This document shows positions 7,448 to 52,059 of a stretch of 64,000 nucleotides of DNA, in pieces. The stretch is from positions 6,997 to 70,996 of the forward strand of contig CAMWIM010000004.1 in the NCBI GenBank assembly GCA_947174335.1, in the 5' to 3' direction. The first letter of the stretch is position 1. Every line of letters begins with the position of its first letter. The notes beneath the pieces were generated by a model. That model searched no databases. It had not been told where the DNA came from and was given only the letters and a program-made list of their open reading frames with translations. The position numbers and the translations under genes are program-made. The stretch comes from an uncultured Porphyromonadaceae bacterium. Its GTDB lineage: Bacteria > Bacteroidota > Bacteroidia > Bacteroidales > Muribaculaceae.

Positions 7448-7504
7448 ATTTGTAAAATATTTACTGATTAAATTGATATTTTATAATATCTTCTGAATTA
7501 GAGA

Positions 7505-10312
7505 TTAGTCAACGTATATTATCTCAGCATTCCCTTTGGACATATTGCTGATAGTGATACCACTTTTTAAATATAATGTATTTAGAGTCGACATACTGCA
7601 ATATAAATCGGTCAGGGCTGTATTCTTTGAGAGATCCAACGTAGTAAGCTTGTTATCCAAACAATACAACTTACTCAGAGCTGTGCAACTTGTTACATCT
7701 AATGAAGTTAATTGATTCATATCGCAATGTAGCTCTGTCAGTGCTTCATTTTTTGATATATTTAATAATGTTAAATTGTTCAAGTAGCATCTTAAAAAAG
7801 TTAGCGCCATATTATTTGAGACATCTAACGTAGACAATTTGTTTTTATCACAGTTCAATTTCGACAGCAGTGTATTCCTTGAGACATCCAAGGAGGAGAG
7901 CTGGTTATCGTTACAGTCTAAGGATTTCAGCATAGTACAATCTGAGACATTCAATATTGTCAACTGATTGCTGTAACACTCTAAATCAATCAGTGCTGTA
8001 TTTCTTGTGATATCCAATGAAGTCAGCTGATTATTACCACATACCAACTTAGTAAGCGATGTATTCTTGAACACGTCCAACATTGTCAATTTATTTAAAT
8101 GACAATCCAACTCCGTCAGCATTGTGTTATTTGAAACATCTAATGTTGTCAACTTATTATTACCGCAATTTAGCTTCTTAAGAGTTGTATTTTTTTTGAC
8201 ATCTAATGATGTCAACTGATTTTTTTCGCAATTCAACTCATTAAGCACTGTATTATTTGACACATCTAATGATGTCAACTTATTAAAGTAACAATTCAAA
8301 TATGTCAGCGCGGTACTGCTTGATACATCCAACGTTCTCAAATCGTTGGTACTGTTGCAATCTAATTTAGTCAGCGATGTACATCCTGAGACATCCAAAG
8401 AGGTCATAGAATGATTAAAACTACAATCCAACTCAATTAATGCTTTAAAACCAGAAACATCTAACGAGGTCAACTTGTTTGAGGAGCACTTCAAGTTAGT
8501 GAGGACTGTATTGTTAGATAAATCCAACGAGGTCAACTGGTTTGAGTAGCATTCCAAATTAGTCAGGGCTGTATTGTTAGATAAATCCAACGATGTCAAC
8601 TGATTATAATAGCAACTTAGATCGTTTAAATTTTTAAAATATTGTATTCCCTCAAGTGATTTAATGCTTTTAAAACCACAAGAGACTCTTGTAACATTTA
8701 ATGCTTCCTTGCCTGAAATGACACCATCTTTATCTTTATCAAAATTACTCAAAACATAACTACGGAAATTTTCATCAGGGAAGGCTATAGTCATATCTGA
8801 AGGAATTGAAAATGTAAACTCTTCCTGGCTAATTTTAATTGAAGTGAAAGCTTTTCCGGTTTTATCTACTATTTGTATAGTAGCGCTACGAGCATCTCCA
8901 TTATTTTCACTTACTAACAAAGTAATTGTTTCTTTTCGGTTTGCTCTTGATTCAACAGTGCTAATCCAACTTTTTACGTCGGTGGGGATTGACAGAGAGT
9001 AGTCGGTATTGGTTTCTATATTGATACTTACTGACCCACCTGTTGTCGGAACTTGATATGTCTCTCCACTTGTTACCTTTAAAAATTCTTCCTCTTTGCC
9101 ATTTCCCTGGTTAATCTCAATTGAGGTGAAAGCGTTACCGTCTTTATCTACTAATTGAATGTGTGAGGTACGGGCAACATCTTTATTCTCCCTAATTAAT
9201 AAAGTGATTGTTTCTTGACGGTGGGTGCGTGATTCAACTTTGCTAACCCAATGTTTATCTTCGTCAGGAATTGAAAGGTCGAAGTCTGTATTTGTTTCGA
9301 GATTGATACTTACGGTTCCACCGGTTTTGGGTACTTGATATGTTGTTCCGCTTGTTACCTGCAAAAAATCTTCTTCGCCAAACGAAATGCTGCTCATCAC
9401 AGTTACCTTACCGTTTGATGCAAGCAAGATGACCTTGTCATATTCGTCAATAGCATCCCCGGTAATAATAGAGATGGTACCTTTTGCTGAATTACGATTA
9501 TTTAATTTTGCTTTGACATTACCCGATGAAATAACCTCCAATTTGAGTCCAACGACGCTTCCTTCAACAACATAGCTGATATTATAGGTCGAATTAGGAG
9601 AAACTGATTTTAGTTCGGCAAGCGTTTGCTCATCAAATTTTATGGTTAACTCTGCTTGACGAGGGAGTGTAAATTTAGTGCCGTCTGACAGAGTAAAGGT
9701 TACTTTTTGAGGGTCTGAGGTGTCAATGTCGTTGAAAACTGCATTTTTACCGTCGGCGGTGCCTTTGCCGAGATTGACCCAGGTTTTGCCACCGTCAGCC
9801 GACATCAACCAGTTGTCTTTGTCAATTTTAAACTCGGGAAGAACAACATCTGATGTTCCGGTAGTACCAACTTTATTCCCATCTTCGCTGAGTATCCATT
9901 CTCCGTTGATAGTCCAATAATAATCTCCTTTTTCATCTTGTTTGATTCCAATAACGGGGGCTGAACCATTAGTGCCATCAGCACCATTGATGCCATTGAC
10001 GCCGTCTTGACCATCTTTACCGTGATAAACCGAGATTGACGGACTTTTGACAAATGCAAATGTATAGCCGACCTCTTTTTCGCCCTCTTTGATCGGAGTA
10101 ACTGAAGTGATAGCATCTCCGTTTTCCATAGCGTTAACCAATGTCTGAATCGATGTGACATTAGTATTCAGTTGTTTGCACTGTTCTTCGAGCGACTTCA
10201 CTCGATTTTCAAGATTTTCAACGCGATTGCTCAATGGTCCGTCGTCATACTTGTCACAAGATGACAATGCGAATAGAGCAACCGCACAAATGGAGAGAAT
10301 AAAATTCTTCAT
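7505..10312 (-). CDS. surface lipoprotein: N-terminal coiled-coil domain + two BACON-like domains + about 17 leucine-rich repeats
   Basis: Lipobox LSSC. Duplicated module YQVPxTGGxVSINxETNTDxxLSIP (BACON-like). Long array of 22-aa LTSLDVSxNTxLTxLxCxxNx repeats. Confidence 0.85.
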   Translation of the reverse strand: MKNFILSICAVALFALSSCDKYDDGPLSNRVENLENRVKSLEEQCKQLNTNVTSIQTLVNAMENGDAITSVTPIKEGEKEVGYTFAFVKSPSISVYHGKDGQDGVNGINGADGTNGSAPVIGIKQDEKGDYYWTINGEWILSEDGNKVGTTGTSDVVLPEFKIDKDNWLMSADGGKTWVNLGKGTADGKNAVFNDIDTSDPQKVTFTLSDGTKFTLPRQAELTIKFDEQTLAELKSVSPNSTYNISYVVEGSVVGLKLEVISSGNVKAKLNNRNSAKGTISIITGDAIDEYDKVILLASNGKVTVMSSISFGEEDFLQVTSGTTYQVPKTGGTVSINLETNTDFDLSIPDEDKHWVSKVESRTHRQETITLLIRENKDVARTSHIQLVDKDGNAFTSIEINQGNGKEEEFLKVTSGETYQVPTTGGSVSINIETNTDYSLSIPTDVKSWISTVESRANRKETITLLVSENNGDARSATIQIVDKTGKAFTSIKISQEEFTFSIPSDMTIAFPDENFRSYVLSNFDKDKDGVISGKEALNVTRVSCGFKSIKSLEGIQYFKNLNDLSCYYNQLTSLDLSNNTALTNLECYSNQLTSLDLSNNTVLTNLKCSSNKLTSLDVSGFKALIELDCSFNHSMTSLDVSGCTSLTKLDCNSTNDLRTLDVSSSTALTYLNCYFNKLTSLDVSNNTVLNELNCEKNQLTSLDVKKNTTLKKLNCGNNKLTTLDVSNNTMLTELDCHLNKLTMLDVFKNTSLTKLVCGNNQLTSLDITRNTALIDLECYSNQLTILNVSDCTMLKSLDCNDNQLSSLDVSRNTLLSKLNCDKNKLSTLDVSNNMALTFLRCYLNNLTLLNISKNEALTELHCDMNQLTSLDVTSCTALSKLYCLDNKLTTLDLSKNTALTDLYCSMSTLNTLYLKSGITISNMSKGNAEIIYVD
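7570..8640 (-). repeat. 66-bp-period coding tandem array (LRR units) inside the LRR gene
   Basis: Recurring gtcaa(c/t)tg.tt / acatc(t/c)aa(c/t)g blocks visible at about 66-bp spacing. Matches the 22-aa protein repeats. Confidence 0.8.
8830..9370 (-). repeat. internal tandem duplication encoding two BACON-like modules
   Basis: Protein segments FLQVTSGTTYQVPKTGG...IEINQG and FLKVTSGETYQVPTTGG...IKISQE are collinear and highly similar. Confidence 0.75.
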
Positions 10313-10645
10313 TATTAAAATAAGATTGGTTCAATGTCCGACCAACACCCACTCGGACTGGTATATACAAAAAAGCGTGGTGCCGAACTAAGTTGCTCGT
10401 TCCACGTCTTGAGGCCTTCGCATTGCCTAACATCAAAGAACAAGCAAAGTAGAAGACCCACGCTGTATGGTATATATAAATATATACACATCAGGTGTCA
10501 CTACTTATGCTTCGTTCGATTGATGTTTATTTTGAAAGTTGCGAAGTTCCAAGACATCAGAACTGAAGCGCGATAGTAACGCTTTATGTTTTATTTAAAC
10601 CATCAAAAATCTCCTCGCTCGGAGGGTTGATGACATCGCAAATTT
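10313..10645 (-). promoter_or_regulatory. structured 5' leader, copy A (promoter to start codon of the LRR operon)
   Basis: The -7 box TAAATTTG is the reverse complement (rc) of 10638-10645. Small hairpin at 10566-10582. Box gttgcgaagtt at 10537-10547. Long hairpin at 10374-10462 with the conserved apex aggccttcgcattgcc at 10411-10426. U-tract is the rc of 10368-10373. Same blocks and order as copies B and C. Confidence 0.7.
10368..10462 (-). terminator. terminator-like long hairpin + U6 inside leader A
   Basis: GCGTGG (10374-79) pairs with CCACGC (10457-62). Inner stem gttgctcgttc/gaacaagcaa. On the minus strand the hairpin is followed by UUUUUU. Confidence 0.6.
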
Positions 10646-15825: not shown

Positions 15826-18489
15826 TCAGTCGATATATTTGATTTCGGTCTTTGAATTGATAAACTCGATTCCGCGGTTGATATTTATACCGTTAATTCT
15901 GAATCCGGTCTTCAGATACAAGGTCTTGAGCGACGGCATTACGCACCATAGATCGGTCAGCTCCGTGTTTTTAGAGAGGTCTAATGTCGTGAGCTGATTT
16001 CCGTTACAGTTCATCATATATAACTCGGTGTTGTTCGAGAGATCAAGCGTTGTGAGTTGGTTTTCAGAACAATCAATATCAGCAAGTGCTGTATTTTTTG
16101 TAAAATTGACCGAGGTCAATTTATTGTCGTAGCAATACAGGTGGGTCAAAGTTGTAAGAGGGGATAGATCTAATTCGGTTAACTCATTATGATAACAATG
16201 TAGCTCGGTTATCTTTGTGTTCTGAGAGATATCTAACGACGTTATATCGTTATATGAGCAGTCAAAATAGGTTATCTCAGGGCAGTGAGAGCTGTCGAGC
16301 GAAATAAGCATGTTTTTGTGACAGTTCAGATATGTCAGTGACGGGCAATTTGCAAGATTCAATGAAAGAATCTGATTGTCGGCGCACAATATCTGGGTAA
16401 GTTCGGGACAATTTGGAATTTTAAGTGAGGTCAGCAGATTTGATTCGCACCACAACGATTTGAGTGCAGTGCAGTTAGATACGTTTAGCGAATACAGCTT
16501 GTTGTTAGAGCAAGACAGCGAGGTCAATGCCTGACACTTTGATACATCCAACGAATTCAGACGGTTGCCCGAGCATGATAACGAAGTCAGAGCCGGGTTA
16601 TTAGATAGATTCAGTGATGTGAGGTGATTGCCGTAACACTCCAGCTCGGTCAGAGCCGGGCAATTAGAAAGATTCAGAGTGCCGATCAGATTGTCAGAAC
16701 AGTCTAAATAGGTCAGAGCTTTGGAATTGGATAAATCTATTGAAATTAAACGGTTGTTGTAGCATTTCACACTGGTTAACTCCGGACAACAAGCGAGGTT
16801 GAGCGTTATTAGGTCGTTGCCATAGCAATCCAGGTCGGTCAGGCGGGGGCAGTTTGAGAGGTCAAGCGATGTCAGGTAGCAGCTGCACGACAGTGTGGTC
16901 AAAGCCGGGCAATAAGATAAATCTAAAGTTGTCAAATTGTTAGCCGAGCAATCAAGATATGTCAGTGCTGCACATTTTGACAAATTCAGATATGGAATCT
17001 CATTTGTGCGACATTTCAATTCAGTCAGTTCGGCGCAGTCCGAAATATCAAGCGATGCAATTAGATTGTTTTCGCAATTCAAGCTTGTCAATGCTTTATT
17101 TTCAGAGAGATTGAGAGTGGTTATTTCGTTATTTGAGCAATTGAGAACTTTCAGATTTGAGAAATATTGAATACCCTCAAGCGATTTAATGGTGTAAATC
17201 GATCGTTTTGATACGTCGAGTGTCGTTACCGCTAACGCCTCTTCTTTAGAGAGAGTCCCGTCGTGGTTGGTGTCTAAATCTTCCAACACATATCTTCTAA
17301 ATAACACATCGGGGAAAGCCGATTGCATATTTGACGGAATCTCGGTGTTAAGCGATTGACCCTCTTGGCTGATTTGTATCATTGCCAATGTTATCCCATC
17401 GATGTTTGTTAGATACACTTTGGTTGTGCGGGTGACATCGTTGTTTGGTGAAATATTCAGTGTGATAGTCTCTTGCCTGATTGCTCGCGATGTAACCTCG
17501 CTGATCCATCCTTGGGCATCTTCAGGAATAGAGACCGAATAATCGGTGTTGGTTTCGATGGTAAATTCTATAGTCCCGCCCTCATTCTCGACGTTATAAA
17601 AAGCTTCAGAAGTGATATGTATAAATTCGTCTTCTTCAAACGACAAACTCTTTGATACCGAAGTAGAGCCGTTTGAAGCGATCAAGATTAACTTGTCAAG
17701 TTCGCCAATTGTTTCTCCGGTTTGAATGGTGATTGTTCCTTTTGCTGATTCGGCATCTTCAATCTCAGCCTTGATATTGCCCGATGTTACAACCTCAACA
17801 TTCAGCCCTTTGGTTTCACCCATAATGGTATAGGCTACTCTGATTGTCGCGTTAGGTTCGACCGGAATATTATTGTCAACGTCGTCAATGTTGAATGTGA
17901 TGGTTAATTCTGGCTGGCGGGGTATTATAAGTTTCTCGCCATTTGACAACGTAAAGACAACCTTCTCTGCATCAGACATATCAATGTCGCTGAAAAGCAC
18001 ATTGTTGCCTTGACCGAGATTGATCCAGCTTTTACCATTATCGAGGGAAACATACCAATTTTTTTTCTCAATCTTAAGTGTCGGTAGAACAGCAAATTCC
18101 GATCCGTAAGGCATGACCTTATTACTGTTGCTGTCAAGTAGCCAACCGTCGTTTAAAGTCCAGTAATAAATGCTGTCACTATCTTGCTTGATGCCGATTG
18201 AGGGTGATGTCGAGCTATTCCCGTAATAGATTGAGATAGGCTTATTTATAGCGAATGCAAAAGTATAGCCGACCTCTTTATCATCTTCAATTAGTGGCGA
18301 AATAGAAGTGATAAGGTCGTTATCATGCAAAATGTCAACCAACGCTTGTAAGGCGGTAATATTGGAATTTATCTGATTACACACCTCATCAAGCTGCTCA
18401 TCAGGATAGCCGGGCTCCTCTTTGTCATCATTACAACCGACTAAAACCATGATTGTTATCAAGAAAAGTGTGTATATAAATTTTTTCAT
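15826..18489 (-). CDS. surface lipoprotein, paralog of 7505..10312 (one BACON-like module + LRR array)
   Basis: Lipobox LVGC. Same N-terminal domain (ITSISPL.EDDKEVGYTFAF). About 66-bp coding repeats at roughly 15900-17160. Short-leader promoter (rc of 18522-18529 = TAACTTTG). Confidence 0.85.
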   Translation of the reverse strand: MKKFIYTLFLITIMVLVGCNDDKEEPGYPDEQLDEVCNQINSNITALQALVDILHDNDLITSISPLIEDDKEVGYTFAFAINKPISIYYGNSSTSPSIGIKQDSDSIYYWTLNDGWLLDSNSNKVMPYGSEFAVLPTLKIEKKNWYVSLDNGKSWINLGQGNNVLFSDIDMSDAEKVVFTLSNGEKLIIPRQPELTITFNIDDVDNNIPVEPNATIRVAYTIMGETKGLNVEVVTSGNIKAEIEDAESAKGTITIQTGETIGELDKLILIASNGSTSVSKSLSFEEDEFIHITSEAFYNVENEGGTIEFTIETNTDYSVSIPEDAQGWISEVTSRAIRQETITLNISPNNDVTRTTKVYLTNIDGITLAMIQISQEGQSLNTEIPSNMQSAFPDVLFRRYVLEDLDTNHDGTLSKEEALAVTTLDVSKRSIYTIKSLEGIQYFSNLKVLNCSNNEITTLNLSENKALTSLNCENNLIASLDISDCAELTELKCRTNEIPYLNLSKCAALTYLDCSANNLTTLDLSYCPALTTLSCSCYLTSLDLSNCPRLTDLDCYGNDLITLNLACCPELTSVKCYNNRLISIDLSNSKALTYLDCSDNLIGTLNLSNCPALTELECYGNHLTSLNLSNNPALTSLSCSGNRLNSLDVSKCQALTSLSCSNNKLYSLNVSNCTALKSLWCESNLLTSLKIPNCPELTQILCADNQILSLNLANCPSLTYLNCHKNMLISLDSSHCPEITYFDCSYNDITSLDISQNTKITELHCYHNELTELDLSPLTTLTHLYCYDNKLTSVNFTKNTALADIDCSENQLTTLDLSNNTELYMMNCNGNQLTTLDLSKNTELTDLWCVMPSLKTLYLKTGFRINGININRGIEFINSKTEIKYID

Positions 18490-20591: not shown

Positions 20592-21206
20592 TTAATTTAT
20601 TGTCATTGGAGGTCGTTCGGTAAATTTTGAGGCGATAGTGTCGGCCAATTGGATTAGAGTTACAAGAGGATAGAGCTTTTCAGCGGTGCGGAATGAGTTG
20701 CGTTCTTCGTTATCTGACTGATTGACGCTCCAAGCACCCATGTGCCAGCGAATTGCGCTGATCTCTGCATCGGTTAGCCCGAATCCCATTCTTAGAAGCA
20801 TTACAACCGATTTTTCGCCGTGACCGATTGGGAGAGCACCCGGGTCAGTGCCAAATTCGGCTTGCCCAAACTCGATTTGGGCACCGCGTTTGCGGTGATA
20901 AATATCGCTTTTACACATATCATGAAGCAGACTTGCGACAATGATACTTTCATCGCTGATATTGTCAAAAATATCAGGACGCTCGGTCATAAAAGTCTTT
21001 TTCAGCGTGAGTGCCGCCTCACAAACGTTTAACGAATGACACATTAAACCACCCTCAAAACAAAGATGATTTTTCATTGATGCCGGAGCTGTGAAAAATC
21101 CTGAATTTTCGAGTTCTTCAAGAAAATAATCGATGTCGTCGATTCCTGTAGATTTCAATAAATCAATAATTCGGTTTTTGACTTTTTTCAATTCTTCTTT
21201 ATCCAT
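20592..21206 (-). CDS. HD-domain phosphohydrolase
   Basis: H...HD motif (ASLLHDMCK) and downstream His/Asp residues. -7 box (rc caaaatta) just upstream. Confidence 0.8.
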   Translation of the reverse strand: MDKEELKKVKNRIIDLLKSTGIDDIDYFLEELENSGFFTAPASMKNHLCFEGGLMCHSLNVCEAALTLKKTFMTERPDIFDNISDESIIVASLLHDMCKSDIYHRKRGAQIEFGQAEFGTDPGALPIGHGEKSVVMLLRMGFGLTDAEISAIRWHMGAWSVNQSDNEERNSFRTAEKLYPLVTLIQLADTIASKFTERPPMTIN

Positions 21207-21329: not shown

Positions 21330-21372
21330 AATTAAAATAAATAGCGCTTCTAAAGTTTTACTTTAGAAGCGC
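21330..21372 (-). terminator. intrinsic terminator of the 21394..21972 gene
   Basis: 12-bp perfect stem gcgcttctaaag/ctttagaagcgc (21344-21372). Followed on the minus strand by UAUUUAUUUU. Confidence 0.75.
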
Positions 21373-21393: not shown

Positions 21394-21972
21394 TTAGTGA
21401 TCCCATTCAAGACCTTCTGTTTTGAAATTAAAGGTTCGAGTTCCTTCGCTGAAAAATTCAGCATTGATTTTCATTGTACGTGATTCTTTTATTTTATTGA
21501 GTACTTTATTATAATTATCAATGAAAAGGAGATCTGTGCTATAATCTGAAGGTTGAATGCAATGAACAATAATAGGCTCATTATCATCAAAACGTACTTT
21601 AATATTTGTCCCGTTAATACCTGGATTAAATTGTCCCTTGGAGATTTTTATATAAATATTTTTCCCATATTGAGGACTATTTCGGATTGTAAGGGTAAGA
21701 CTACTGCCTCCATTGTAAGGAAAATCAAACTCAACTTCATTTTCTGACTCAATAGAAGCATAGTAAGTAGTTTTATCTGTCATTTCGTCAATGGACTGAT
21801 GATATTCCCAAGCTGTTTTTTTAGCTTTATTTAATTGAGGATCCTCCTTTGTCAAACTTGAGTCCGAGCTACTTTCAGAAGTTGTTTCACTTGAAGAGTC
21901 GTCAGAGGTACATAAGGCGAAAGCAAACAAAACTACTAAAAAACATAGAATTGGTAGAAGAAATTTCTTCAT
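21394..21972 (-). CDS. small lipoprotein of unknown function with a Ser/Asp/Glu-rich linker
   Basis: MKKFLLPILCFLVVLFAFALC signal and lipobox, then a low-complexity TSDDSSSETTSESSSDSS linker. Confidence 0.7.
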   Translation of the reverse strand: MKKFLLPILCFLVVLFAFALCTSDDSSSETTSESSSDSSLTKEDPQLNKAKKTAWEYHQSIDEMTDKTTYYASIESENEVEFDFPYNGGSSLTLTIRNSPQYGKNIYIKISKGQFNPGINGTNIKVRFDDNEPIIVHCIQPSDYSTDLLFIDNYNKVLNKIKESRTMKINAEFFSEGTRTFNFKTEGLEWDH

Positions 21973-22346
21973 GGCTGTTTATGGTGCCTTCGGACTCCCC
22001 TCGTTGGCATTTATCAGATTATAAAAAGAGAGCGTGAGAGCCGTACCTGCTGCTCGTTCCACAATTGGAGGCCTTCGCATTGCCCGGTTAGTTGAACGAG
22101 CAACTGCAGAAGCCTCACGCAGAATATGCCTATACAATAACATATGGTACTCACGCACCAATTGTTATTGGAATGTACATATCCACAAGACATCTACCGT
22201 TGCTACAATCCTGACTAACCTAAGAAAGTTGCGAAGTTTCCAATTGTCAAGAAAGAGCGTCGAGTAAACGCTATCTAAAAATGTTAGCCGACCCTCCCGC
22301 ATTTCCCATACCAAGGCTTCTGCGTTTAGATCTGCGGTGCAAAGTT
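21973..22346 (-). promoter_or_regulatory. structured 5' leader, copy B
   Basis: The -7 box TAACTTTG is the rc of 22339-22346. Small hairpin at 22255-22271. Box gttgcgaagtt at 22227-22237. Long hairpin at 22031-22119 with apex aggccttcgcattgcc at 22068-22083. U-rich tract is the rc of 22022-22030. Confidence 0.7.
22022..22119 (-). terminator. terminator-like long hairpin + U-tract inside leader B
   Basis: GCGTGAG (22031-37) pairs with CTCACGC (22113-19). Inner stem ctgctcgttc/gaacgagca. Followed on the minus strand by UCUCUUUUU. Confidence 0.55.
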
Positions 22347-22591
22347 AGATAAATTTTATTATTCCACAAATATTAAAATTTAAAATTATTGGTAAATAAA
22401 TATATTTAAGGTGGGATATTGTGTCATTTTTCGCGAACTATTTTGAAAATATAAAAAGAATGTTGTAACTTTGTGGTCGAAAATAGAATATCGCACTTTT
22501 TAATTCGATAACTCAAGGGGTCTTCGCCTTTCACGGCCGAGATTCTTTATTTTTTTACTATTTACGAAAAAACAAAAAAACAGATAAAACT

Positions 22592-25656: not shown

Positions 25657-26577
25657 ATGACTGACACTATTACACATCTGACTGATTCAGAAATCGTTGC
25701 CCAAGGACGAAAAGTTACTTGGATAGGATTTGGTGTCAATGCTGTGCTTGCATTTTTAAAAATCATTGCCGGTATTTTCGGACGTTCGACAGCTATGCTT
25801 GCCGACGGTGTTCACTCGCTTTCTGATTTTGTTACGGACGTCATCGTGATTGTGTTCATGGGGTTGTCACGCCGAAAGGCTAACAGTAAATATTCTTATG
25901 GACACGGCAAATATGAGACTTTTGCCACAATGATTGTGTCGTTCTTCCTCATCGTTGTTGCCATCGGGTTCTTTGTTGACGGTGCTCAAAAAATTTGGGA
26001 TTCAATACACGGGCATGAAATTGCACGTCCCGGAATGGTTGCGCTTGTAATGGCGGTTATATCCATTGCGTCAAAAGAGATTTTATTCCATTACACACGC
26101 TATGTCGGACGCCGAATAAATTCTCAGTTGATTATAGCTAACGCTTGGCACCATCGCAGTGATGCTCTGTCGTCAGTTGCCACTTTGCTCGGTATTGCCG
26201 GCGCAATGTTCCTCGGTCCGTCATGGCGTATTCTCGACCCGTTGGCGGCAATGCTTGTGAGTGTCTTTATTGTGATTGTGTCAATCAAACTTGCAGCCCC
26301 GGCAATAAAAGAGTTGCTCGAAGCATCTCTCCCCCCTGATTTAGTCAAACAAATCGACACCATTGTTGCAAATACAAAGGGCGTCAAATCATATCACAAA
26401 GTTAGAAGTCGTCGAAACGGCAATACCGATATTGTCGACCTTCATATTCAGGTCGATCCCGACATTACAGTCAAGCAAGGTCATGATATTGCCACCGACT
26501 GTGAGCGGCATCTAAAAAAACTTCTTGGTAAGTCGGCTATTATAAACATCCATGTCGAACCATATCATTCTCATTAA
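25657..26577 (+). CDS. cation diffusion facilitator (CDF) family metal efflux transporter
   Basis: ADGVHSLSDFV and HHRSDALSS motifs. Six TM segments plus a C-terminal cytoplasmic domain. Confidence 0.9.
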   Translation: MTDTITHLTDSEIVAQGRKVTWIGFGVNAVLAFLKIIAGIFGRSTAMLADGVHSLSDFVTDVIVIVFMGLSRRKANSKYSYGHGKYETFATMIVSFFLIVVAIGFFVDGAQKIWDSIHGHEIARPGMVALVMAVISIASKEILFHYTRYVGRRINSQLIIANAWHHRSDALSSVATLLGIAGAMFLGPSWRILDPLAAMLVSVFIVIVSIKLAAPAIKELLEASLPPDLVKQIDTIVANTKGVKSYHKVRSRRNGNTDIVDLHIQVDPDITVKQGHDIATDCERHLKKLLGKSAIINIHVEPYHSH

Positions 26578-26605
26578 ACACCTAACATTCAACATTATAC
26601 TTACG

Positions 26606-28120
26606 ATGAAATCCCGCTTCAGACATTTGGTTTTGGGAACTGTGGCAGCGATTATCGCAGTCACATCTTTTTCATTTCTTTTTTCAAGTTGTAGCAAAGA
26701 AGATGGTAACCTTCTCGATAACGTACCTTACAATTCAAAGGTTATCGCTACGGTTAACCTCGACTTGATTCTTAAAAACGCTGGTTGTCAGTTTAGAGAC
26801 GGTACAATTTTGCTCTCAAACGATCTTGCTGTTTTGCGCGACCGTTATTTTCAGGATCGCTCGACAGCTGTCAATATGGTTTTGTTGACCGCCTCGACTG
26901 TTGACTTAAAAAAGGTCGTTATATATCAGCTTGATAATCTCGACCCGGTTTTGACATTTAGAATCAAGAACAAAGATATTTTTACCGCACTTGCAACCGG
27001 AGCTGCCGGCAAAATGGAGTCGATAGGTAAATTTGATGTTTTTGAACTTGAAAAGTGTGTAATCATGACCTCGGGTAACATCGGTTGGCTTTCGTCGTCA
27101 GTTACTAATATAGAAAAATCACTTGCGCCGAATAAAGGAAAGAAGCATGAAGGCTTCAATAATGCTAAAAACATCATTGACTCTTCTGACAAGGCGGTAG
27201 CTATGGCTATCAACCTTCATCAAAGCATTGATGCCGCGCCCGACAACGGAGTTGTTCAATATTTTAAAAATACTTGGGTTATCGGCGAAGTAAATCTTGC
27301 CGACAATATCCTTGGGCTCTCATTCAAGGCTATCGACCGTGGCGGTGAGGCTCTTGACATCAGCCCCTATATCGGTGAAATCGACCCTGACTTTTTAAGA
27401 TATACTCCCGACAATACTCAGCTTCTTTTTACGATCGGAAGTGTTAACGGTATTGATGAATTATATACCAAAATCCGCACGGCTCTATCCCCCGAAGTCC
27501 GTGAGTCAATCGACCGTTTCCTCCCTTACATCAAGGAAATAGACGGTACAACCTCGGTTGCAGTCAACCCGGTTGCAACCGGCAGCAGTCTGACCGACTT
27601 CTCGCTTGACACATGGGATGCAACAATTATGACACATCTGCCTCAGCACAGTGTTGACGGTATCGTCACAATGATAGGACACCTCGGCACACTTACCGGA
27701 CAAGCTCCGTCTGATGATGAACAACCCTCGTTTACAATTGGAGACAAAGAGGTTTTCTATGGCAATTACGACGGCTATCTCGCATTTTCAACTCGTCCTA
27801 TTTCAGCCGATTATAATAATTCGTTTACTACCGTTGTATTAGGTAGTCGCGCTCTTTTCATGCTCGATATACCCTATAAAAGTGAAACGATGAAGGCGTT
27901 TGATTTACCTTTTGGCTTCTACATGTCGCTCCGCCTTGAAAATACTTCGCTTAATGGTCGATTGAAATTCAACGGCACAAATGCACCGTTCCTCAGTGCG
28001 TTGGCATCGGCAATGGTTTCCTATGCTCGTGCCAATCCGTTGCCCGACATCGTAACTGAAACAGTTACTGATGAATATCACGACGATTCAATGATTGAAG
28101 ATGAACTCCAGCCTCTCTGA
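26606..28120 (+). CDS. lipoprotein of unknown function
   Basis: An internal ATG gives MKSRFRHLVLGTVAAIIAVTSFSFLFSSC (signal plus lipobox). Confidence 0.6.
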   Translation: MKSRFRHLVLGTVAAIIAVTSFSFLFSSCSKEDGNLLDNVPYNSKVIATVNLDLILKNAGCQFRDGTILLSNDLAVLRDRYFQDRSTAVNMVLLTASTVDLKKVVIYQLDNLDPVLTFRIKNKDIFTALATGAAGKMESIGKFDVFELEKCVIMTSGNIGWLSSSVTNIEKSLAPNKGKKHEGFNNAKNIIDSSDKAVAMAINLHQSIDAAPDNGVVQYFKNTWVIGEVNLADNILGLSFKAIDRGGEALDISPYIGEIDPDFLRYTPDNTQLLFTIGSVNGIDELYTKIRTALSPEVRESIDRFLPYIKEIDGTTSVAVNPVATGSSLTDFSLDTWDATIMTHLPQHSVDGIVTMIGHLGTLTGQAPSDDEQPSFTIGDKEVFYGNYDGYLAFSTRPISADYNNSFTTVVLGSRALFMLDIPYKSETMKAFDLPFGFYMSLRLENTSLNGRLKFNGTNAPFLSALASAMVSYARANPLPDIVTETVTDEYHDDSMIEDELQPL

Positions 28121-51673: not shown

Positions 51674-52059
51674 TATGTATCTTTGAACTATGCAATTTTA
51701 CATTCATCGACCCCCTGATGAATATATAGATACAAAAAAAGCGCAGGATCCGTACTTGTTACTCGTCCTGCTGCTAAAGGCCTTCGCATTGCCCGAAATA
51801 GTAGAACGAGCAACGCAGAGCCTACGCCGTATGAATATATTATACACCATAGTAGACTATATTATAGATATAATCAACCAATGGGTACACATCATACCCG
51901 AAGACATCTACAGTTGCTTCATTCTCGACTATTTCTTAAGAGGTTGCGAAGTTCTTAGCAGCCAAGAATTAAGCGAAAGTAAACGCTTTTGAAATATGTT
52001 TTAAACCCACCCATCCGACGGATAATTTCGTCATCGGCGTAGATTTCACTGCAAAATTA
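51674..52059 (-). promoter_or_regulatory. structured 5' leader, copy C (in front of the six-gene operon)
   Basis: The -7 box TAATTTTG is the rc of 52052-52059. Small hairpin at 51972-51987. Box gttgcgaagtt at 51943-51953. Long hairpin at 51741-51827 with apex aggccttcgcattgcc at 51778-51793. U7 is the rc of 51734-51740. Confidence 0.7.
51734..51827 (-). terminator. terminator-like long hairpin + U7 inside leader C
   Basis: GCGCAGG (51741-47) pairs with CCTACGC (51821-27), with a G.U pair only if read on the minus strand. Inner stem gttactcgt/acgagcaac. Followed on the minus strand by UUUUUUU. Confidence 0.6.

Follow-up and report, generated by a model that had tools for sequence, protein, structure and literature searches.

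A multicopy leader RNA with two covarying folds, a probable transcription attenuator upstream of a Muribaculaceae lipoprotein gene

What does a structured leader of ~370 nt do upstream of a small lipoprotein gene when the same element recurs before functionally unrelated genes of the same genome? The question is raised by a locus in 64,000 nt of DNA from an uncultured Porphyromonadaceae bacterium assigned to the Muribaculaceae (assembly GCA_947174335.1, contig CAMWIM010000004.1, positions 6,997 to 70,996; this whole stretch is called the window below). The source genome is a 2.40-Mb draft with 42% G+C. The window holds three copies of the leader, A, B and C; copy B, as read from the sequence, occupies 22347-21973 on the minus strand, from a promoter box to the ATG of the lipoprotein gene. 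The leader family is an uncatalogued, widespread, bistable RNA, and copy B is a genuine member of it. Judged from its sequence and predicted folds, copy B probably acts in cis to attenuate transcription, as part of the 5' untranslated region (UTR) of the lipoprotein mRNA.

Copy B begins with a -7 promoter box, TAACTTTG (22340..22347, minus strand, read from the sequence), of the Bacteroidetes TAnnTTTG type, and the ATG of a 192-aa open reading frame (ORF) lies 368 nt downstream of this box. A TAnnTTTG box is present at most 120 nt upstream in 90 of 98 leaders, against an expectation of 0.08 per 120 nt. A repeat search of the window found the copy B segment 22021-22086 again at 10364-10429 and 51730-51795. 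A hidden Markov model (HMM) built from copies A, B and C was used to search the source genome with nhmmer, which yielded 15 copies (E 5.6e-105 to 8.7e-17), all of them directly upstream of a gene on the same strand. Both searches bear out the initial annotation of this DNA, made from the letters alone, which had treated copy B as a member of a repeat family. The first ORF begins 40-66 nt past the U-run of the leader in most copies, with a mode of ~52 nt.

One line of evidence for a conserved RNA structure concerns two loops. The upstream hairpin P2 (22208..22253; this and all other leader features lie on the minus strand) contains three copy-specific segments, a (22246-22240), b (22236-22230) and c (22220-22215), with coordinates taken from copy B. 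The loop of the terminator hairpin (22062..22091) contains c' (22091-22086), b' (22079-22073), which sits in a GGGC..GCCU hairpin, and a' (22068-22062). As a whole, the terminator loop is the reverse complement of a-b-c. A covariance model, R1, was built from the 15 own-genome copies and applied to relatives and to an order-wide sample. Pairing was counted in an alignment, A3, of 103 matches, with column counts on 102 distinct sequences and with shuffles as the control. We also compared, for each copy, the pairing of its 5' segment with its own 3' segment (cognate) and with the 3' segments of the other copies (non-cognate). The hold-out set consisted of 87 further leaders from other genomes that were not used for discovery. 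Because the model to which A3 was fitted contained helices a and b, the counts for these two lean towards structure; helix c, the terminator, the antiterminator, P2 and the helices X1 and P5 described below were outside the model.

In the 15 own-genome copies, RNAalifold picked the long-range helix, with compensatory changes in almost every pair and none broken. Segments a-b paired with b'-a' at -22.3 kcal/mol in cognate combinations and at -8.1 kcal/mol in non-cognate ones. For c with c', a helix not in the model, the corresponding values were -7.3 and -1.1 kcal/mol. The full P2 loop is therefore complementary to the full terminator loop over a duplex of ~24 bp that is different in every copy. 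Across A3, 95.4% of the cells of this helix were paired, with 630 double-change cells compared with 201 after shuffling and a score of 0.673 compared with 0.224; slid controls scored at most 0.105 and were at most 46% paired. GU pairs greatly outnumbered AC combinations in the helix (49 vs 7), which places the constraint on the RNA of this strand. All cognate signals were replicated in the hold-out set, where the whole of a-b-c gave -31.7 kcal/mol against -12.8 kcal/mol for non-cognate partners. The initial annotation had also raised the alternative of a passively spread repeat; this is contradicted by the compensatory changes, which keep the structure, and by a position that is fixed relative to promoter and start codon.

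The long-range helix is part of one of two folds, a terminator/antiterminator design that the initial annotation had not described and that is the chief feature of the element. State X combines P1, the long-range helix a-b-c/c'-b'-a' and an antiterminator into one giant hairpin, whereas state Y is built from X1, P2, P3 and the terminator. The two are exclusive, since the shared strand pairs either upstream or downstream and the P2 stem overlaps both helix a and the antiterminator. P1 is the hairpin AGCGUUUACUCGACGCU (AGCGUUUAC..CGCU) at 22256..22272, the most conserved block of the leader, with a divergence of 0.01 among copies with near-identical cores. Its 5' half can pair alternatively with GGUAGAUGU (22198-22190) to form helix X1 (GCGUUUACU with GGUAGAUGC), which was 95.4% paired with 39 double-change cells compared with 9.6 in shuffles, and which is incompatible with P1 and with part of the antiterminator. 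The lower stem of P2, UUCUUGAC (22253-22246) with GUCAGGAU (22215-22208), was 93% paired, with 16 double-change cells compared with 5.2.

The shared strand, GCGUGAGGCUUCUGCAGUUGCUCGUUC (GCGUGAGGC..GUUGCUCGUUC; 22094..22120), has a double role: it forms the terminator's 5' arm in state Y and supplies the antiterminator with its 3' strand in state X. The 5' strand of the antiterminator, UGUAGCAACGGUAGAUGUC (22189..22207), pairs with 22120-22094 in state X; the helix was 84% paired, with 71 double-change cells compared with 34 in shuffles, and its two strands show the co-insertion GCAAAC/GUUUGC. The 3' arm of the terminator (22032-22059) is made up of GAACGAGCAGC (22059-22049) and GGCUCUCACGC (22042-22032). 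The terminator helices were 86% paired, with 161 double-change cells compared with 60, and both sides vary in 17 of 20 pairs; in the hold-out set, the upper terminator helix gave -17.4 kcal/mol with cognate and -13.2 kcal/mol with non-cognate partners. Covariation is three-way, linking the antiterminator strand, the shared strand and the terminator 3' arm in such sets as AGUAAC/GUUACU/AGUAAC and GCAAU/AUUGC/GUAAU, and in a class GAAUG/CGUUC/GAACG compared with GGAUU/CGUCC/GGACG. A U-rich tail, UCUCUUUUU (22031-22023), follows the terminator stem, and at least 6 U within the 9 nt after this stem were found in 89 of 101 copies.

The remaining parts of the leader lie at its ends and between the antiterminator strands. 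P0 (22292..22337) is a 5'-terminal hairpin, CCGCAG...AUGCGG, that ends in the G-rich GGGAGGG; it was seen in single-sequence folds of B and 25 other copies, its length differs between copies, and an A/U-rich linker separates it from P1. Pairing of the G-rich end of P0 with the terminator 3' arm was considered and gave no cognate signal. P3 (22121..22188), a variable apical hairpin found by folding between the antiterminator strands, differs between copies in sequence and length. Downstream of the terminator is a conserved module, AUAAUCUGAUAAAUGCCAACGAGGGGAGUCCGAAGGCA, followed by an A-rich run to the ATG (21973..22022); the consensus of the module is AUAA(A)CC(A)AUC..GCCAACGAGGGGAGUCCG..GGCA at 22022-21985. 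Part of the module, GGGGAGUCCG (22000-21991), can pair with the terminator 3' arm as helix P5, with a cognate energy of -11.0 and a non-cognate energy of -8.9 kcal/mol (-10.2 and -8.2 in the hold-out set). Compensatory classes of P5 are GGCUCUC/GGGAGUC, GAUUCC/GGGGAU, CAGUUCCU/AGGAGCUG and GGAUCC/GGGUC. This helix is possible only in RNA that has been read through the terminator.

Thus, copy B has a hairpin with a U-run on the same strand as the gene, between the promoter and the start codon, and an alternative helix that uses one strand of this terminator. The helices of states X and Y and the fact that they exclude each other are shown, as are the U-run, the promoter and the constant placement ahead of genes; that termination takes place, and that the choice between the states is conditional, is inferred. 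Transcription would start a few bases past the TAACTTTG box, and the RNA would fold first into P0, P1 and P2. As the shared strand (22120-22094) emerged, it would pair with the upstream antiterminator strand, and the next 30 nt (c'-b'-a') would present the exact reverse complement of the P2 loop (a-b-c). Zipping of the ~24-bp duplex would open P2 and complete the antiterminator, giving state X, in which the terminator 3' arm has no partner and the polymerase may continue into the gene. After read-through, the module past the terminator would bind the free 3' arm as P5 and so lock state X in the mature mRNA. If the duplex came too late, the 3' arm would capture the shared strand, the terminator and its U-run would form alongside P2 and X1 (state Y), and transcription would stop ~50 nt before the ATG.

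In state Y, segments b and b' are predicted to lie in apical loops, where they could kiss. On topological grounds, a 24-bp duplex should not be able to form inside two closed hairpin loops, and the complementarity through the whole of both loops points to conversion of such a contact into an extended duplex.

The energetics and several searches weigh against regulated termination. In unconstrained folding, the minimum-energy fold was state X in 95 of 101 copies, with a mean of -107.8 kcal/mol compared with -94.1 kcal/mol for the upstream part plus the terminator, so that X is ~14 kcal/mol more stable; the terminator hairpin alone had a mean of -39.6 kcal/mol. When copy B was folded at increasing lengths, P2 formed first and was displaced once c' emerged, followed by b' and a', and the terminator never won at equilibrium. 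Given the greater stability of state X, the terminator would rarely be formed at equilibrium, and read-through is the thermodynamic default. For termination, a kinetic window would then be required, or else a factor that either keeps P2/X1 in place or prevents the long-range helix from forming. Among the RNA runs searched, none contained this organism or the Sangeribacter locus that was tried, and they gave no 3'-end or expression record. Four RNA runs held leader-like contigs of 80-480 nt from relatives, one of which runs ~98 nt past the terminator; these contigs show only that leader-like sequences are transcribed somewhere. A search of the genome for a trans antisense partner matched a-b-c and c'-b'-a' of all own-genome copies to leaders only. 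The variable segments paired no better with the start codon, the spacer, the first 400 nt of coding sequence or P0 of their own copy than with those of other copies. The genome and pairing searches found no ligand, protein or trans-acting RNA acting on the leader. The downstream genes, described below, are functionally heterogeneous and therefore give no hint of the signal.

The stability of state X could also be explained if the leader were a constitutive, structured 5' UTR whose giant hairpin (state X with P0 and P5) mainly stabilises the mRNA or serves in its processing, for instance by protecting the 5' end or by offering RNase III a substrate in the ~24-bp duplex, while the terminator, leaky and unregulated, would be no more than a brake holding expression at a fixed level. 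Besides the energy difference in 95 of 101 copies, this explanation has in its favor that the read-through leader is nearly fully paired, P5 included, that the 5'-terminal hairpin P0 is stable, and that a patchy spread over families with many copies per genome would suit a self-sufficient expression cassette. Selection, however, keeps the terminator-specific pairings, the U-run and the state-Y helices P2 and X1, none of which a pure stabiliser needs. We regard the constitutive 5' UTR as unlikely, although it is the alternative that survives best.

The leader is also a self-contained unit from promoter to terminator, and could be an independent gene of ~320 nt for a trans-acting small RNA (sRNA), with transcription of the downstream gene as incidental read-through. 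Contigs of 240-370 nt in the RNA runs span the leader alone, and Bacteroides has multicopy sRNA families, FopS among them (PMC11697453). Such a gene would not account for a leader that is always directly upstream of a co-oriented gene at a constant ~52 nt, and the window has no separate promoter box between leader and ATG. Moreover, the variable segments have no match elsewhere in the genome, and no pairing between them and start regions was seen. The post-terminator spacer covaries with the terminator arm, which is relevant in read-through RNA only; the restriction of P5 to this RNA argues against a leader that is a stand-alone sRNA only. An sRNA gene is accordingly a very improbable explanation.

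In Bacteroidales, phase variation classically affects surface and restriction genes. An element acting at the DNA level, either recombinase inverted repeats of an invertible phase-variation switch or a passively spreading repeat, would fit these gene classes and the presence of a-b-c and c'-b'-a' as inverted repeats of ~30 bp spaced ~130 bp apart, but it is barely credible given that the promoter lies outside the repeats, that the repeats differ in every copy and therefore offer no common recombinase site, that the excess of GU over AC is strand-specific and a feature of RNA, that the contigs of three DNA runs (which drop rare variants) are colinear with no strand-switch joints, and that the core is under strong purifying selection.

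Two classes of regulatory leader were also considered. A leader peptide was rejected, as no conserved ORF supports it and the AUG in GAAUGAAGCAAC becomes AUUG or AUGUAG in whole classes of copies. A metabolite riboswitch would be expected to have a coherent metabolic or transport theme downstream, whereas the genes encode LRR, BACON and DUF4988 proteins, methyltransferases, helicases and many proteins without a family. The leader has the conserved internal loops GAAAY/RGCCU and UUUC/GGGC, which are equally explained as apical stems of state Y.

As a putative attenuator, the leader can be compared with the classical terminator/antiterminator leaders (trp-type, PyrR, TRAP, BglG/LicT and the riboswitch platforms). 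These likewise have a 5' UTR, an intrinsic terminator and an upstream strand that competes for a shared strand, to which the present leader adds a further upstream hairpin (P2/X1) that competes with the antiterminator, making three layers. Unlike them, it has no leader peptide, known protein-binding repeat or recognisable aptamer, its decisive element is a copy-specific long-range duplex in which the loop of an upstream hairpin pairs over ~24 bp with that of the terminator itself, and a genome has 15-20 copies of the leader, placed ahead of accessory genes that have no function in common. Complementary loops are also found in the kissing-to-duplex complexes of HIV-1 DIS, CopA-CopT and the hok/sok-type systems; in the leader, b and b' are on short apical stems, and as in those complexes the complementarity of a-b-c with c'-b'-a' is fully realised only by melting both stems. 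Unlike those of HIV-1 DIS, CopA-CopT and hok-sok, the partners here are in one nascent transcript, and the conversion would decide termination.

Long leaders before horizontally acquired surface-structure genes, in which termination is controlled, are known from RfaH/ops and from Bacteroides UpxY, a NusG paralogue that acts by antitermination on surface-structure operons. By comparison, no NusG paralogue is linked to the present loci, and many of the targets are single short genes. The ops element (GGCGGTAG) is only weakly resembled by the leader, with GUAGAUG alone conserved. The FopS and GibS sRNAs of Bacteroides share with the leader a multicopy occurrence in Bacteroidales, TAnnTTTG promoters and a link to the cell surface (PMC11697453). 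FopS RNAs are trans-acting, 65-70 nt long and have a single-stranded seed (the R1 seed of that family) and a terminator, and their deposition in Rfam is reported by the authors (PMC11697453). We rejected membership of the leader in the FopS/GibS group, as it is ~370 nt long, probably acts in cis, has no Rfam match and has another architecture.

The leader was found with R1 in 26 of 41 relatives. Among them are 23 of the 25 genomes sampled from the Muribaculaceae, the family of the source genome, which represent 10 of 11 genera; a single genome has up to 20 copies. In the order-wide sample, drawn evenly from the Bacteroidales, R1 detected it in 64 of 301 genomes and 50 of 209 genera, or about a fifth of the genomes. 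It is distributed patchily across many families and reaches many copies in a genome. When named records were scanned for exact patterns, the full-length form was found mainly in the Muribaculaceae (Sangeribacter, Duncaniella, Muribaculum and Lepagella) and a short form in Symbiothrix, Paludibacteraceae, Dysgonomonadaceae, Odoribacter lunatus DSM 112344, Culturomica and some non-Bacteroidales Bacteroidota. Muribaculaceae bacterium Isolate-104 (HZI) gave a match to the full-length model, and O. lunatus DSM 112344, the one named cultured strain among the matches, fits the core pattern of the short form. No Rfam 15 family matched the whole window at the gathering score, and the only match of 21900-22450 at E up to 10 was a chance Plastid-ndhJ hit at 14.7 bits compared with a cut-off of 43. 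Literature searches on leaders, attenuators and multicopy RNAs of Muribaculaceae and Bacteroidetes yielded no description fitting the leader.

Many of the matches outside the Muribaculaceae are of a compact form of ~190 nt that keeps P1, the long-range helix and the terminator. This variant (L120-L124 and L035 in genome G039, and loci L248-L327) lacks most of P3 and the upper terminator helix, and retains P1, the copy-specific long-range helix and CCCACGC with the U-run. Its hosts are termite-gut and environmental Bacteroidales, Odoribacter lunatus DSM 112344 and some Weeksellaceae and groundwater Bacteroidota records.

Of the 15 leaders in the source genome (G000), six are no more than a few hundred bases away from where a contig ends (C14:45-329, C39:1-275, C50:19326-19566, C10:48270-48554, C51:18621-18911 and C63:194-467). 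The conserved core seems to be an assembly-breaking repeat, so copy numbers from draft genomes are probably underestimates.

Divergence was compared in copy pairs whose cores are at least 95% identical. In such pairs, 45-52% of positions vary in segments a, c, a' and c' and 51% in the unpaired linker, against 0-5% in P1, the P2 stem and the antiterminator and terminator strands; the core is under strong purifying selection. Because their divergence matches that of the unpaired linker, the variable helices appear to drift neutrally under the pairing constraint. Diversifying selection on a and c was considered and rejected, as neutral drift suffices for a divergence of ~0.5 that equals that of the linker. 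The frozen core is partly explained by its multiple alternative pairings. It is also what would be expected from contact with a shared protein or with RNA polymerase.

Gene products with a signal-peptide-like N-terminus are common behind the leaders, being encoded by 61 of 97 first ORFs, and 31 of these 61 have a lipobox-like Cys. Pfam matches in first ORFs include LRR_5 of the BspA type (14), BACON (6) and DUF4988 (5), as well as N6_N4 methyltransferase, ResIII/DEAD, SNF2 and PLDc_2. PADLOC assigned two first ORFs to type III methyltransferases, one to MkoA (Mokosh) and one to HKD+Snf2. A radical-SAM cassette, headed by copy C, is also among the downstream loci, and the orthologous cassette in G010 has a leader as well. 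Restriction and defence genes make up a minority of the first ORFs. Many first ORFs encode small proteins without a family, and many are neither surface nor defence genes. The initial annotation had placed one cis-element before both surface-protein and defence-type loci, which is upheld by the 15 copies of the source genome and the more than 200 in relatives. The association of the leader with surface and defence genes is real, family-wide and non-exclusive.

Two observations concern individual leader-gene pairs. L067 (G008:C41:2007-2288), a leader in a sister species, closely matches copy C (window 51674-52059) in its P0 module, the two modules being almost identical, yet the gene behind it is not the radical-SAM cassette but an unrelated one of 565 aa; from this likeness despite a different gene, leaders and genes appear to have been re-assorted. 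In the window, paralogous BspA-type LRR genes at 15826-18489 and 7500-10312 share arrays of 63-nt (21-aa) repeats (families D1, D2 and D4). The HMM search found a leader before the LRR gene at 10312 only, with none upstream of 18489.

Whether the copies in one cell are controlled together is a separate matter. The invariant core (P1, the P2 stem and the antiterminator and terminator strands) suggests a shared trans-acting factor or a common physical cue. Since this core is invariant among all copies in the cell, the single regulon proposed in the initial annotation is plausible from the sequences. The envelope or phage stress suggested there as a possible trigger finds no support in the present observations. 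A more ambitious interpretation is that the leader is an autonomous, intramolecular kissing-to-extended-duplex switch, found across the Bacteroidales and as a short form in some other Bacteroidota, through which the expression of dozens of accessory genes for surface proteins and anti-phage functions would be gated in each genome. All copies might respond to one shared cue or factor, as an orphan riboswitch-like or protein-dependent regulon, or each copy might flip stochastically, amounting to RNA-level phase variation without DNA rearrangement. We consider this interpretation speculative and, taken as a whole, rather improbable.

Gut Bacteroidales constantly change their surface and their phage defences, and the known switches are DNA inversions and NusG-like antiterminators. 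If the attenuator reading is true, this RNA, of which a genome can have as many as 20 copies, would add a third general level at which these gene classes are controlled. It would likewise provide an unusually clear case, from nature, of a large RNA that is bistable, with covariation documenting both states. Each copy carries a private 24-bp "address" on an invariant core, a combination that might serve as a portable expression switch for Bacteroides engineering.

The gene controlled by copy B, in this reading, is at 21394..21972 on the minus strand and encodes a lipoprotein of 192 aa with a signal peptide, Cys21, a Ser/Asp-rich linker and a beta-rich domain of ~140 aa. In the translation, the N-terminus is MKKFLLPILCFLVVLFAFALC-TSDDSSSETTSESSSDSS, with the signal peptide followed by the Cys and the Ser/Asp-rich linker, as the initial annotation had described it. 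The lipobox is MKKFLLPILCFLVVLFAFALC|TSDD, although the Leu at -1 is non-canonical. The acidic residues after the Cys may correspond to the Bacteroidetes surface-export signal, which they resemble. No Pfam family was matched at E <=0.001, and PADLOC gave no match. Homologues number 159, all "hypothetical" and without a Pfam domain, from Muribaculaceae, Alistipes, Chitinophaga, Spirosoma, Neisseria and Paraburkholderia.

An AlphaFold2 model of the protein has a beta-rich domain with a predicted local distance difference test score (pLDDT) of 87.2. The best PDB match of this domain is Bartonella IalB (3DTD; Foldseek E 6.8e-4, 139 aligned columns). With template modeling scores (TM) of only 0.44/0.55, a root-mean-square deviation of 5.2 A and 11% identity, the match is too weak for a function to be assigned.

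The lipoprotein gene is present in 3 of the 41 relatives (G000, G008 and G013), always behind a leader. In G013 it lies ~4-5 kb from the orthologue of the window gene 26552-28120, a spacing like that in the window. Here, the leader and the lipoprotein gene are inherited together. An obligate link between the leader and the lipoprotein family was rejected, as one distant homologue has a weak, short leader and two others have none.

Copies A, B and C can be compared directly. Global alignments gave pairwise identities of 64% for B and C, 60% for A and C and 56% for A and B, so B is indeed closer to C than to A, as had been claimed, by a modest margin (64% compared with 56%). The motifs said to be shared by B and C are confirmed in part: AAGACATCTAC.GTTGCT is present in B (22187) and C (51901) and not in A, but CTTAAGA.GTTGCGAAGTT is exact in C only. 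In its place copy B carries CTAAGAAAGTTGCGAAGTT, which has an indel, and GTTGCGAAGTT is common to all three copies. The three (10538, 22228 and 51943) have the same b box (CUUCGCA/UGCGAAG) and an identical GGCAAUGCGAAGGCCU. Other own-genome copies belong to other b classes (CCUGGAA, CUCGCA, UUCGAAC and others), and the b box thus defines subfamilies, unlike segments a and c, which are unique to each copy.

Behind the lipoprotein gene is an intrinsic terminator (21334..21372, minus strand) with a 13-bp stem (21372-21344), including 6 GC pairs, and the T-rich tail TATTTATTTT, in agreement with the terminator that had been assigned to this gene. The proposed monocistronic unit is plausible because the next gene on the same strand, 20592..21206, follows this terminator and has its own TAATTTTG box. 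At 21356-21359, in the loop of the terminator, DNA run X3 has AAA and an inserted A in place of TTT, while DNA runs X1 and X2 match the window. The X3 version looks like a flipped hairpin loop, from either a strain polymorphism or an effect of assembly.

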